DNA of 24,594 bases from a virus. Its lineage: Duplodnaviria; Heunggongvirae; Uroviricota; Caudoviricetes. The DNA lies in IMG/VR virus record IMGVR_UViG_2609459839_000005, one strand, 5' to 3'. The translations under genes were made by a program, and so were the position numbers. The notes below the pieces were generated by a model, which worked only from the letters and a program-made list of their open reading frames with translations, was not told the origin of the DNA and ran no database searches. Within the stretch, counting starts at the first letter, position 1, and the number at the start of each line of letters is the position of its first letter. Positions 7,104 to 15,144 of this stretch are shown here, one piece after another.

Positions 7104-7511
7104 AATTATCTCCATTTTTACAAATGAATTTTGTCGATGCGGTGCCTGGTGCCTCCAGGTGACGTTAACCAGTTAACAATTAACGCCGGATAATCCACCC
7201 ATAACACTGATGCTTTTAACTGCGCCGCGTGCGCTTAGCCGCATTCACCGCATCACAAAATTCACTTTAAAAAGGGGCGGCAGGGCAGCTACGGAGTAGA
7301 ACTGGTGCCGCCAAAAACTAGACACAGCAATGTCGTTATTTACAACCGGAGGCGCACTCCCACCATTTAAATTTAACAGACAAGACCGACTCTTTATGGA
7401 TACCGGAAATGCGCCTTCGTATTGTGCCCGGTTTTATTTCACCACCTCCGGGCTTTGGTGGCCTCGGCTATACCCCTACAGCAAGAATATTGAATTAATC
7501 CAATAAATGGT

Positions 7512-9993: not shown

Positions 9994-10298
9994 AGGCTAT
10001 AAACCGACTAACAACTAAATACTGAAGATTTAAATCAGAAACGATTTTTATTAAATCCTTAACCGGAGGGATTCTGCACCCTCAGAACATCAGGAGGCCG
10101 TCTGAAAGGGCGGAACAGATAATGCTTACGTTGAAACATTTTATCGACATACCAACATGGTTAGCCGTCATTGCTTTTGTTAAAATACACATCCACTTTT
10201 CTGTGCAATGTTTAACCACTGGTCATATCAAATGGCATTCATGCGAACCATGATATAGAATCATGGCTTGAGAGAGTCGATGAAAGCGCAACTATGGT

Positions 10299-10871
10299 AT
10301 GAGAGACATTGATGTAAGAAAGGCTGTGCATGCCAAGATTCTGAGAGATCATCATAAAGATCCTGACACCCTAATCATTGATGAGTTTACGATGAATCTA
10401 GGGGCTAGCAGAGCTGATATAGCAGTGATCAATGGGCTTATACATGGTTATGAGTTGAAGAGCAAGAGTGATAACTTGCTCAGATTACCAGCGCAGGTGC
10501 AACATTACTCATCAGTGATGGATAAAGTAACGTTGGTTGTCTCTGATTGCCATCTTTATGATGCTTTAAGCATAGTTCCATCATGGTGGGGGATAAAGCA
10601 AGTTACGCAAGGTGCACGGCAAGGTATCCATTTAAAAACAATTCGAACTAGCAAGTTGAATCCACAAGTGGACAAACTTTCCTTAACAATGCTTCTTTGG
10701 AAAGATGAATTGCTTTCCCTATTAAGTGATGTAGGGGAGCTACAGAATTTGAAAAATAAACCTAAACGCGTCTTATGGTCAAAACTCGCCAATAGTATGG
10801 ATGTTGGCGAGCTTCGTGAAGCTGTTCGAGTTAAACTTAAAGCCCGTAAAGAGTGGCGAGTTGCTCAATAA
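10299..10871 (+). CDS. PD-(D/E)xK-motif nuclease-like protein, 190 aa (first gene of candidate defence cassette)
   Basis: Translation has …IDEFTMNLGASRADIAVINGLIHGYELKSKSD…: Asp in a hydrophobic strand, then E-L-K about 12 residues later. AT-rich (about 35-40% GC in sampled 60-nt stretches). Weak SD, so the start is uncertain. Confidence 0.6.
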   Translation: MRDIDVRKAVHAKILRDHHKDPDTLIIDEFTMNLGASRADIAVINGLIHGYELKSKSDNLLRLPAQVQHYSSVMDKVTLVVSDCHLYDALSIVPSWWGIKQVTQGARQGIHLKTIRTSKLNPQVDKLSLTMLLWKDELLSLLSDVGELQNLKNKPKRVLWSKLANSMDVGELREAVRVKLKARKEWRVAQ

Positions 10872-11934
10872 CCTTAGTTATGTGATGGTTTTGCCCAATC
10901 CTACGCCATACCTCTGGGCTACCAAATTTATAGTTACCAGAGGGATTGGCTTTGTAGGCTTGATACTCGTTTGCATAATATTCTATGTCTCTATCTCCCG
11001 CACAGAATGTAGGCCCTGAATATTCTCGATGAGCAAGAATATCCTCACTATGTTTACCATATTGTTCATAACCAAAGCGATTAGCTACTCTTCCTCGAAA
11101 TACCCAAAAGTCATTATCTCCAGAGTATCTGACGCTGGCAGATACGCTAGGGAATCGCGTCGAAAGCCTATTAAAGTCGGGGTGCTGTACTCCATAATCA
11201 CTATAAATCACATTTCTGGCAAGTTCTTTTCTATTCATTAAACTCTGCCATAAAATCCACTCGATTCGAGGTTGAGAATATAGACCAACAGAAATATCAC
11301 TGAGATCTGTAGGAAATGAACCCCCAGAAAGAATCACTTTTCTGTATTCATTGAGGTGCGCCAGATTGTTTATCAATCCCATTGCCAAAGTATATAGTTC
11401 GCCGGAATTAAGTTTATCCTCGGTTAACTCATCTCTTAAGTCAATAATTATATCAATATTTGATAAAGGAATTCCCAGATGATTAATGTAATGCGTTATT
11501 AATTGTGGGTTAACCAGATCTAACGTGGTTAATCTCAAGCATATTTCATTCTGCATTAATTCATCAATCGCTCTTTTATAGTTAGATGGGCGAGTTGGTG
11601 AACTGACAGGAATAACTCTTATCCCCATATCTCTAACTTGATTAACCGCATTTATTATAGGGTAATGATCTTCAGGAGAAATAAAATGCTCTTCAATTAA
11701 TAATCCATCAATATAAACACCTTGCATATCTGAGCAAGATTTTGAGACTTTCTTTCCGAACTCTATAAGAGTCTCGTTATAACTCTTTAAGGCAATACCT
11801 GAATCAGGGTCAATTGGCACTGGTTCAATTTCGAGTAATGGCAAAATTTTTGATTTCTTTTCAATGGATAGCTGCGATAAAGCTGATAACTCAGAACGTT
11901 TCGCTTTCAGAATAGGAATATATGAAATTGTCAT
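10837..11934 (-). CDS. 365-aa partner protein of the cassette (possibly beta/sce7725-like family)
   Basis: Long clean AT-rich ORF (MTISYIPILKAKRSELSALSQL…) converging on the 190-aa gene, with 35 bp of 3' overlap. SD-like AAGG 7 nt ahead of the ATG. Family assignment is recollection only. Confidence 0.62.
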   Translation of the reverse strand: MTISYIPILKAKRSELSALSQLSIEKKSKILPLLEIEPVPIDPDSGIALKSYNETLIEFGKKVSKSCSDMQGVYIDGLLIEEHFISPEDHYPIINAVNQVRDMGIRVIPVSSPTRPSNYKRAIDELMQNEICLRLTTLDLVNPQLITHYINHLGIPLSNIDIIIDLRDELTEDKLNSGELYTLAMGLINNLAHLNEYRKVILSGGSFPTDLSDISVGLYSQPRIEWILWQSLMNRKELARNVIYSDYGVQHPDFNRLSTRFPSVSASVRYSGDNDFWVFRGRVANRFGYEQYGKHSEDILAHREYSGPTFCAGDRDIEYYANEYQAYKANPSGNYKFGSPEVWRRIGQNHHITKVIEQLATLYGL

Positions 11935-12286
11935 GTTAATACCTTATACAGAATCAATTAACAATTAATGGTTCTTCGGACATTGAAATTTATATCGCAA
12001 AAATTGGCAAACTCTCCTCGACTACTCACTTGTGGGTATCCTGGCGTAAAAGGAATGACTTGGCAATACCCGGTGTGATCATAAGTCATTGAAAATGATC
12101 ATTTTTATCAGTCTTTCTTCCATGATGAATGCTAATGCCATTTGATTTGTTGAGGTGAAAACTGTTAAAAATCAAAACGATGTAATTGAAATGAACGTTC
12201 GGTAGCATTCACGCTTTAAATGTTTCTTTTGTGCTGATTGGATGAATTTTGGTCACTTATGATGAGAGATGTTGCAGGAAAAGAAG

Positions 12287-12315
12287 TTGGCATTGATCTA
12301 TTGGATAGTTAGAAT
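12287..12315 (+). promoter_or_regulatory. Sigma70-type promoter candidate for the hok-family mRNA
   Basis: TTGGCA (12287-12292), 17-bp spacer, TAGAAT (12310-12315). Predicted transcript of about 415 nt to the terminator at about 12737, typical of hok mRNAs. Confidence 0.4.
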
Positions 12316-12490
12316 TGCTGCGGGTGCTTGAGGCTATCTGCCTCAGGCATGAACACCAAAAGGCAGATAGAGAAAAGCCCCAGTTAACATTACGCGTCCT
12401 GCAAGACGTTTAACATTAATCTGAGGCCATATCTATGCGACACATAGAGATTAGCCTCTTACGGACCGAAAGGTCAAGGAGAAGCAGGCT

Positions 12491-12646
12491 ATGAAGCAGC
12501 AAAAGGCGATGCTAATCGCCCTGATCGTCATCTGTTTAACCGTCATAGTGACGGCACTGGTAACGAGGAAAGACCTCTGCGAGGTACGAATCCGAACCGG
12601 CCAGACGGAGGTCGCTGTCTTCACAGCTTACGAACCTGAGGAGTAA
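12491..12646 (+). CDS. Hok/Gef-family type I toxin (51 aa, single TM segment)
   Basis: Not in the ORF track (below 60 aa). Hand translation: MKQQKAMLIALIVICLTVIVTALVTRKDLCEVRIRTGQTEVAVFTAYEPEE, with the Hok/Gef signature LVTRKDLCEV…RTGQ…EVAVF…AYE. AAGGAG lies 8-13 nt upstream. Confidence 0.82.
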   Translation: MKQQKAMLIALIVICLTVIVTALVTRKDLCEVRIRTGQTEVAVFTAYEPEE

Positions 12647-14990: not shown

Positions 14991-15066
<76 letters not shown>

Positions 15067-15069
15067 TAT

Positions 15070-15144
<75 letters not shown>

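Follow-up and report, generated by a model that had tools for sequence, protein, structure and literature searches.

Convergent sce7726 and Beta family genes share a fixed-phase coding overlap across bacterial phyla and their phages

Here we examine the junction between two convergent genes in a 24,594-nucleotide (nt) stretch of DNA from a virus of the Caudoviricetes (IMG/VR record IMGVR_UViG_2609459839_000005), hereafter referred to as the window. The genes encode a protein of the sce7726 / P4-cII family on the plus strand and a Beta family protein on the minus strand; they run tail to tail, and the ends of their open reading frames (ORFs) overlap. Homologous pairs from many bacterial phyla and their phages were found to overlap in the same antisense phase, and a short segment of the junction is constrained by both proteins.

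The plus-strand gene (10299-10871, 190 amino acids, ATG start) is a full-length member of the sce7726 family, with NCBIfam model NF033832 (sce7726_fam) covering residues 1-184 of 190 at 191.1 bits (cut-off 70; E=1.6e-56). The PADLOC 'cII' model of the phage P4 Gop-beta-cII system also matches the protein (E=2.4e-28), and PF26915, named Phage_P4_cII in the locus annotation tables, is present on its homologues. An AlphaFold (AF2) model of the protein has a predicted local distance difference test score (pLDDT) of 92.6, and the top Foldseek matches to it are all of the PD-(D/E)xK fold; 3dnx (E 1.9e-5) is the sole significant one, and further matches include SfsA, NucS/EndoMS and a tRNA splicing endonuclease. 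In an alignment of 27 diverse sequences, actinophage and Myxococcus phage homologues among them, D40, E52 and K54 are invariant. The modelled restriction-endonuclease-like fold together with this D...E-x-K motif places the protein in the PD-(D/E)xK superfamily as a predicted nuclease. Homologues without a neighbouring Beta gene occur in Myxococcus phage Mx4 (L006, 2992-3561) and in a Xenorhabdus koppenhoeferi contig (L016, the same as L125), and the nuclease-like protein can therefore exist alone. The homologue has been left unannotated in the records of Gordonia phage DumpsterDude (L004, 3001-3633) and of Mycolicibacterium phage Mycofy1 (L005, 3001-3642), the former carrying a short annotated ORF on the opposite strand in its place; gene callers presumably avoided the long convergent overlap in these records.

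The minus-strand gene (10837-11934, 365 amino acids, ATG start) was assigned to the Beta family from its ORF, Pfam and PADLOC matches and a structure model. Pfam Beta_protein (PF14350) aligns positions 1-341 of its 342 to residues 5-356 at 178.6 bits (gathering threshold 27; E 3e-52), and the PADLOC model PD-Lambda-2_C matches the protein with an E value of 1.7e-41. The structure model (pLDDT 92.1) consists of a TIM-barrel and a long C-terminal helix formed by residues 340-362. Sequence searches of the PDB with profiles of the sce7726 and Beta families gave nothing useful, and fold searches were needed instead. A designation of Beta as the "sce7725" family was considered and rejected, there being no NCBIfam match for the Beta proteins of Sorangium, P4, Bradyrhizobium and Brevibacillus. 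Routine annotation labels the two genes "beta family protein" and "sce7726 family protein", and the possibility that the ORF pair is an annotation artefact or a pseudogene was ruled out by its conservation.

The two ORFs overlap by 35 nt (10837-10871, stop codons counted). The plus-strand frame ends at TAA 10869-10871 and the minus-strand frame at 10837-10839, which reads TTA on the plus strand and TAA on the minus strand. The RefSeq/PGAP annotation of E. coli O27:H7 B4103-1 contains an identical gene pair with the same overlap, and the 35-bp convergent 3' overlap described in an earlier note on this DNA is thereby confirmed. The frames are in antisense phase 1 (codon positions 1:1, 2:3, 3:2), so that K184-E185-W186-R187 of sce7726 are written opposite L359-A360-T361-L362 of Beta in a truly dual-coding core at 10849-10860. 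Beyond this core, the sce7726 tail V-A-Q-stop (10860-10871, plus strand) and the Beta tail Y-G-L-stop (10837-10848, minus strand) are, by comparison of codon positions, unconstrained. Because each ORF meets its stop only three codons beyond its last conserved residue, the overlap in the window, taken as a single case, is not beyond chance; its conservation is far beyond chance. The exact length of 35 nt is a local, allele-specific feature. In most close relatives the window stop codon TAA at 10869-10871 is CAA, giving a protein of 192 amino acids (...WRVAQQL) and a 41-nt overlap, and the window overlap measures 35 rather than 41 nt because of this CAA-to-TAA change, which leaves the allele two codons shorter.

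The earlier note had proposed a comparison of stop-codon positions in homologous cassettes, and we carried this out on three partly redundant sets of loci. The first comprised the window, E. coli, phage and genome-contig loci (88 entries), including 80 one-genome-per-species contigs retrieved with an sce7726 profile built from a narrow alignment; the second comprised 80 viral contigs, with the window's own contig among them as L108; and the third comprised four loci reached via PD-Lambda-2_B homologues. Genes were located by profile hidden Markov model searches on stop-to-stop ORFs, and overlap counts are therefore independent of the choice of start codon. Convergent pairs were found in 84, 79 and 4 entries of the three sets, respectively, and were overlapping in 81, 78 and 4. 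Taken together, 172 entries yielded 167 convergent pairs, of which 163 overlap, an outcome of the proposed comparison that speaks for the feature. None of the 167 pairs is co-directional or divergent, so the tail-to-tail orientation noted for the window holds throughout. The five entries without Beta consist of two cut at contig ends and three solo sce7726 genes (Mx4, and Xenorhabdus koppenhoeferi fetched twice).

Overlap lengths range from 11 to 167 nt, and all 163 equal 2 modulo 3, i.e. antisense phase 1. This is also the phase that natural convergent overlaps of more than 4 nt most often have. The loci are diverse: the sce7726 proteins from sets one and two (168 entries) fall into 47 clusters when grouped at 60% identity and 21 clusters when grouped at 50%. 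Judged by record titles, they extend over Gamma-, Alpha- and Betaproteobacteria, Myxococcota, Bacilli, Clostridia, Acidobacteriota, Chloroflexota, Gemmatimonadota, Armatimonadota, Melainabacteria-like organisms and two candidate-phyla lineages, and convergent, overlapping pairs are also present in Gordonia phages Powerball and DumpsterDude and in Mycofy1. The distance from the codon of a conserved C-terminal Trp of sce7726 to the Trp343 codon of Beta is 54 nt in 105 loci, 57 nt in 3 and 78 nt in 1. Most convergent gene overlaps in prokaryotes span a few nucleotides and are lineage-specific. The junction in the window differs from convergent overlaps in general in that one register is kept across many phyla and their phages.

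To resolve which bases of the junction are constrained, and by which protein, 59 unique loci were placed in an ungapped alignment anchored at the Trp codon of the R..W[RK] motif near the C terminus of sce7726. The Trp itself is fixed in this alignment by the selection of loci, and the same residue is also invariant in the unselected 27-sequence alignment. Per-position entropy revealed a hand-over between the two reading frames. In the part upstream of the Trp codon, bases vary at third positions of the sce7726 frame and are fixed at its second positions; beginning with the Arg codon that comes next, the Beta frame sets the pattern, and the two regimes meet over about 12 nt (10849-10860). For example, base 10859, the third of the Arg187 codon, is A in 58 of the 59 loci because it is also the second base of the Beta Leu/Ile359 codon, so that Arg is encoded as CGA or AGA only, regardless of GC content; at two other conserved Arg codons nearby, all four bases occur at the third position. 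Similarly, position 10850, the second base of the codon for Beta L362, is A in 47 of 59. The Trp codon TGG in turn forces residue 361 of Beta to begin with A (Thr/Asn/Ser) and residue 360 to be encoded by xCC (Ala/Ser), and the codon geometry is consistent with an Ala/Ser choice at Beta 360 that should track CGA versus AGA at Arg187. The helix-end motif of Beta, V..QL..L, is kept in loci whose genes do not overlap (QLSKL in L018, QLTRL in L019 and IELSEAL in P4), and the helix end is therefore constrained for its own sake, with both proteins constraining the core; the two Beta residues forced by the Trp codon relax in those same loci. A conserved RNA or DNA motif within the overlap was considered and rejected, since every conserved base is explained by a codon position that is constrained in either sce7726 or Beta. 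The truly dual-coding part is thus limited to about 12 nt, the remainder of the overlap being an unconstrained read-through tail.

These observations also bear on the simplest account of the overlap, a chance extension of ORFs or an annotation artefact of no wider meaning. Such an account would fit the three codons by which each ORF outlasts its last constrained residue and the allele-specific length of 35 nt as against 41 nt in close relatives. It is refuted by a core held in fixed register in 105 loci from many phyla, by the codon-level signature of dual constraint and by the single phase of all 163 overlaps, and we give it almost no credence.

A few loci depart from the common register. In one gamma-proteobacterial clade of 42 loci the Trp-Trp distance is 93 nt, an in-frame increase of 39 nt, and the cores lie apart, an overlap of 11 or 59 nt remaining between the tails. 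Apart from P4, the loci without ORF overlap are a Photobacterium locus (L018, the same as L126) at 94 nt (+40) and L017 at 95 nt (+41); as these out-of-frame distances occur only in non-overlapping loci, the phase has been lost only where the overlap has been lost. In P4 the order given by the GenBank feature table is gop (+), beta (+), cII (-), and beta and cII are separated by a 27-nt gap with an annotated rho-independent terminator, unlike the overlapping genes of the window. Homologues in which one ORF ends earlier, named in the earlier note as a finding that would speak against an overlap of functional meaning, therefore do exist, although they are few and confined to P4 and one small gamma-proteobacterial lineage. 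On this distribution, the two genes seem to have become separated no more than a few times, and the P4 junction, resolved to a gap, indicates that ORF overlap is probably not required for function.

The earlier note had also regarded the two genes as a paired, defence-type cassette, a view that is upheld by the protein families they share with two known anti-phage systems. The first of these is Gop-beta-cII of P4, which contains the same two families (Beta, PF14350; cII, corresponding to sce7726) as adjacent and convergent genes. The P4 gop-beta-cII region was reportedly studied by Ghisotti in 1990. The P4 cII protein is 264 amino acids long, compared with 190 for its counterpart in the window, and the third P4 gene, gop, which encodes a membrane-protein-like toxin co-transcribed upstream of beta, is missing from the window cassette: no ORF longer than 43 amino acids is present in 11935-12490, and a tblastn search with P4 gop matched only P4 among all loci. 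With no homologue in the other loci, gop is therefore a lineage-specific addition. The product of the P4 gene (L007, 247-645) has two hydrophobic N-terminal segments and looks like a small membrane protein. A phage accessory gene triggers the P4 system, which confers protection against lambda and P1 (Rousset 2022, PMC9122126).

The second system is PD-lambda-2, which consists of three genes, of which C is required for defence and not for neutralisation of the toxin (Vassallo 2022, PMC9519451). Component C is a Beta family protein, as in the window. A HigB-like A and a B component with an Xre helix-turn-helix (HTH) domain and an M78 peptidase were found neither among the window ORFs nor at the identical RefSeq locus, only C being matched. 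In contrast to this bare pair, a PD-Lambda-2_B gene (Xre HTH and M78 peptidase; PADLOC E 1e-77 to 1e-147) lies directly upstream of Beta in 16 genome loci (L025, L045, L047, L052, L060, L061, L067, L069, L071, L072, L077, L080, L083 and L085-L087). Similarly, all four loci reached via PD-Lambda-2_B (L168-L171) have the order HigB_toxin, Peptidase_M78, Beta_protein, followed by a convergent Phage_P4_cII as a fourth gene, with Beta/cII overlaps of 56, 56, 32 and 158 nt in the same phase as in the window. Other genes upstream of Beta include one with an FRG-domain, matching the PADLOC candidate system PDC-S15 (L076:4643-5470, minus strand), and one with an HTH and an S24 peptidase, LexA/CI-like (L038:4521-5216, minus strand). 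Because the upstream partners vary, Beta/cII looks like a constant core, of which the window would represent the bare form, and Gop-beta-cII and PD-lambda-2 appear, from these gene neighbourhoods, to be elaborations of one conserved two-gene core.

The construct used to demonstrate PD-lambda-2 activity is of interest here. It was cloned from ECOR42 as 228989-232396, with its genes at 229385-232009, and ends 396 nt past gene C (PMC9519451). A cII gene, if ECOR42 has one at that place, would therefore be truncated, and the construct that was assayed probably contained no intact cII partner. In a search for the ECOR42 locus, the E. coli homologue was not among the best 120 of more than 7,900 matches, and two plasmid matches that were inspected (about 41-43% identity) were HigB-ImmA/IrrE pairs without Beta/cII.

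Over the cassette region (10200-12100), identity to Escherichia phage Rac-SA53 is 99.8%, and the region is present in 93 of 5,426 complete E. coli genomes. It lies between replication and DUF977 genes on one side and the hokD/sok locus on the other, which places it in the nin-type region of a Rac-like lambdoid E. coli prophage as an AT-rich insertion, its GC content being 33-43% as against about 50% in the flanks. DNA similarity to other enterobacterial modules (about 65%) extends from the sce7726 ATG to the Beta ATG, and the flanks are unrelated between hosts. Homology is bounded by the two start codons, and the mobile unit consists of just the two ORFs, which take their promoters from variable flanks. 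Such mobility raises the possibility that the overlap was selected for linkage, shared essential codons stabilising a toxin-/antidote-like pair during horizontal transfer. The movement of the module as exactly two ORFs, its very wide phyletic spread with the junction intact and the rarity of solo sce7726 genes (Mx4, L016) would all agree with this. However, the shared part of each protein amounts to its last four residues, so that a deletion in one gene would in most cases spare the other, and Beta is present in the cloned PD-lambda-2 fragment, whose short extension past gene C would truncate cII, should ECOR42 have one. We consider selection for linkage improbable.

Elsewhere in the window, Rfam matches comprise the RalA antitoxin small RNA (1557-1735), DicF (7275-7326, minus strand) and sok (12322-12646), with an ORF for the hokD peptide at 12491-12646; two tRNAs lie at 14991-15141. 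These features imply that, apart from the cassette, the prophage carries two or more type I toxin-antitoxin loci. No RNA family was found by Rfam within 10.2-12.0 kb. Between the Beta start codon and hok/sok, a spacer of about 350 nt (11935-12290) is free of ORFs and very AT-rich (33-36% GC).

Overlapping convergent genes require separate, converging promoters and have complementary 3' ends in their full-length mRNAs. The statement of the earlier note that each mRNA would be antisense to the other's 3' end is, for full-length transcripts, a direct consequence of the overlap, which makes at least 35 nt complementary. A promoter-like site for sce7726 (ATGGCA-18-TAGAAT; 10232-10261, plus strand) lies 38 nt upstream of the gene. 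It amounts to no more than a fit to the consensus, and promoter-like sites are not more numerous in the region than expected from shuffled sequence; for Beta, no site passed the consensus scan. The -10 element of the sce7726 site is spanned by a perfect 7+7 palindrome, CCATGAT-ATAGA-ATCATGG (10248-10266), which may be an operator.

A standard terminator scan found no terminator at the junction, and a looser custom scan returned a hairpin at 10785-10811. This terminator-like feature for the Beta mRNA (10778-10816, minus strand) lies inside the sce7726 ORF, 28 nt after the Beta stop codon, and has a stem formed by 10785-10792 and 10804-10811, an 11-nt loop and a following UUUUG; the surrounding 151 nt of the minus strand (10780-10930) fold with a z score of -4.09. 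The stem is kept in the C311 allele, which is 97.6% identical. A Beta mRNA ending at this hairpin would therefore be antisense to about 95 nt of sce7726. Among 75 unique modules, a strong hairpin with a T-run occurs within the first 75 nt past the Beta stop codon in 10, compared with 2 in all 18 other 75-nt bins on that strand together, and none of the modules has such a structure after the sce7726 stop codon. The embedded hairpins lie 28-73 nt past the Beta stop (L009, L010, L036, L038, L043, L053, L079, L081, L082 and L084). Some lineages would thus terminate Beta transcription inside the partner gene, at putative terminators, while transcripts of sce7726 have no evident intrinsic terminator. 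The embedded hairpins suggest that antisense read-through matters, and their pattern points to insulation from read-through rather than to use of it.

Known regulatory systems with similar geometry provide a context for these signals. Type I toxin-antitoxin systems of the B. subtilis bsrG/SR4 type are convergent and pair at their 3' ends, the antitoxin being a non-coding RNA. The window pair resembles them in tail-to-tail transcription and 3'-end pairing and differs in that both partners are conserved protein genes with confidently predicted folds. It is also unlike type II toxin-antitoxin systems, which form bicistronic operons, its genes being on opposite strands, tail to tail. In excludons and other convergent genes without a terminator between them, each mRNA is antisense to the other, leading to polymerase collision and RNase III cleavage (PMC7154746; arfA-mscL, PMC10070815). 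The window pair likewise has no intergenic space, its sole terminator-like element lying inside the sce7726 ORF. However, excludons overlap in untranslated regions and their regulation has been shown experimentally, whereas in the window pair it is the coding sequences that overlap, and the amino acids of both proteins are under constraint there.

An overlap that couples the expression of the two genes, as the earlier note envisaged, is plausible on this geometry, and the junction might more specifically be a selected device of the excludon type, in which collision or RNase III cleavage would let one gene lower the expression of the other and their ratio would act as a trigger or a safety catch. 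The mechanism is well documented for terminator-less convergent genes and for arfA/mscL (PMC7154746, PMC10070815). All 167 pairs are convergent, the overlap-free ones included, and the overlap has persisted despite very deep divergence. In most modules, moreover, no terminator-like site lies past the sce7726 stop codon, so that its transcript probably runs antisense into Beta, and the enrichment of Beta hairpins just behind the stop codon of that gene implies that 3'-end placement is under selection in some lineages. Set against this are the absence of nucleotide conservation beyond the codons of both proteins, the restriction of dual constraint to about 12 nt within an overlap whose length drifts freely from 11 to 167 nt, the terminator in the 27-nt gap of P4 Gop-beta-cII, an active defence system, and the embedded terminators themselves, which point to insulation and not to exploitation. 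We regard a selected device of this kind as possible, though as the less probable explanation of the junction.

On balance we favour, with some reservation, an ancient, frozen dual-coding junction kept by purifying selection on both C-termini, the antisense relationship being a side effect that is tolerated or insulated against. Under this reading the two genes would travel together as the core of anti-phage systems of the abortive-infection type, with the Trp-Arg end of sce7726 and the last turn of the final Beta helix written on the same 12 or so nucleotides of opposite strands. Past this core, each ORF would read on without constraint until it met a stop codon, which would produce the range of overlap lengths seen among relatives. 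Separating the genes would need a duplication of the shared segment and would accordingly be rare, as in P4 and the single in-frame +39-nt gamma-proteobacterial clade. Collision of RNA polymerases or cleavage by RNase III may let each gene dampen the other to some extent, again as a side effect and not as the reason for the overlap. We infer the ratchet-like retention of the junction, the side-effect status of the antisense pairing and the defence role of the two-gene form; the second of these follows from the drifting overlap length, the lack of extra nucleotide conservation and the activity of P4 with a terminator between its genes.

Several observations weigh against a frozen junction. Separation being irreversible, a neutral ratchet should erode, yet more than 90% of lineages still have the overlap, with proteins that have diverged to about 40% identity; the junction may therefore be under selection itself. 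Furthermore, convergent orientation is kept even in lineages that have resolved the overlap. In addition, the versions shown to act against phages are the P4 and PD-lambda-2 systems only, each with three genes.

Both protein families and the P4 and PD-lambda-2 systems were already known. In the literature searched, we found no description of a phylum-spanning, fixed-phase dual-coding junction, of a stand-alone two-gene form or of a link between the two named systems through a shared core; searches on PF14350 and Gop_beta_cII returned nothing, and mentions of sce7726 were incidental genome reports.

Together these results provide an unusually clear example from nature in which two proteins place constraints on one piece of DNA from opposite strands, with one register held in Proteobacteria, Firmicutes, Acidobacteriota, Chloroflexota, Myxococcota, candidate-phyla bacteria and actinobacteriophages. 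In practical terms, detection rules that require gop, or HigB together with Xre-M78, probably miss the stand-alone core, as found in the window and in those 93 complete E. coli genomes. The findings further raise the question of whether the cII-like nuclease is the real effector and was truncated in the PD-lambda-2 construct, and whether convergent transcription helps to control an abortive-infection system. A bolder interpretation, which we consider unlikely though of consequence, is that the junction is a selected antisense switch older than the divergence of the phyla, in which transcription or RNase III processing would make the nuclease-like gene and the Beta gene or operon mutually exclusive and any shift in relative promoter activity, for instance upon phage infection or prophage induction, would flip the module to killing. 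If true, the junction would match type I toxin-antitoxin control in a protein-coding form that spans phyla, and Gop-beta-cII and PD-lambda-2 would have it in common as their regulatory core.

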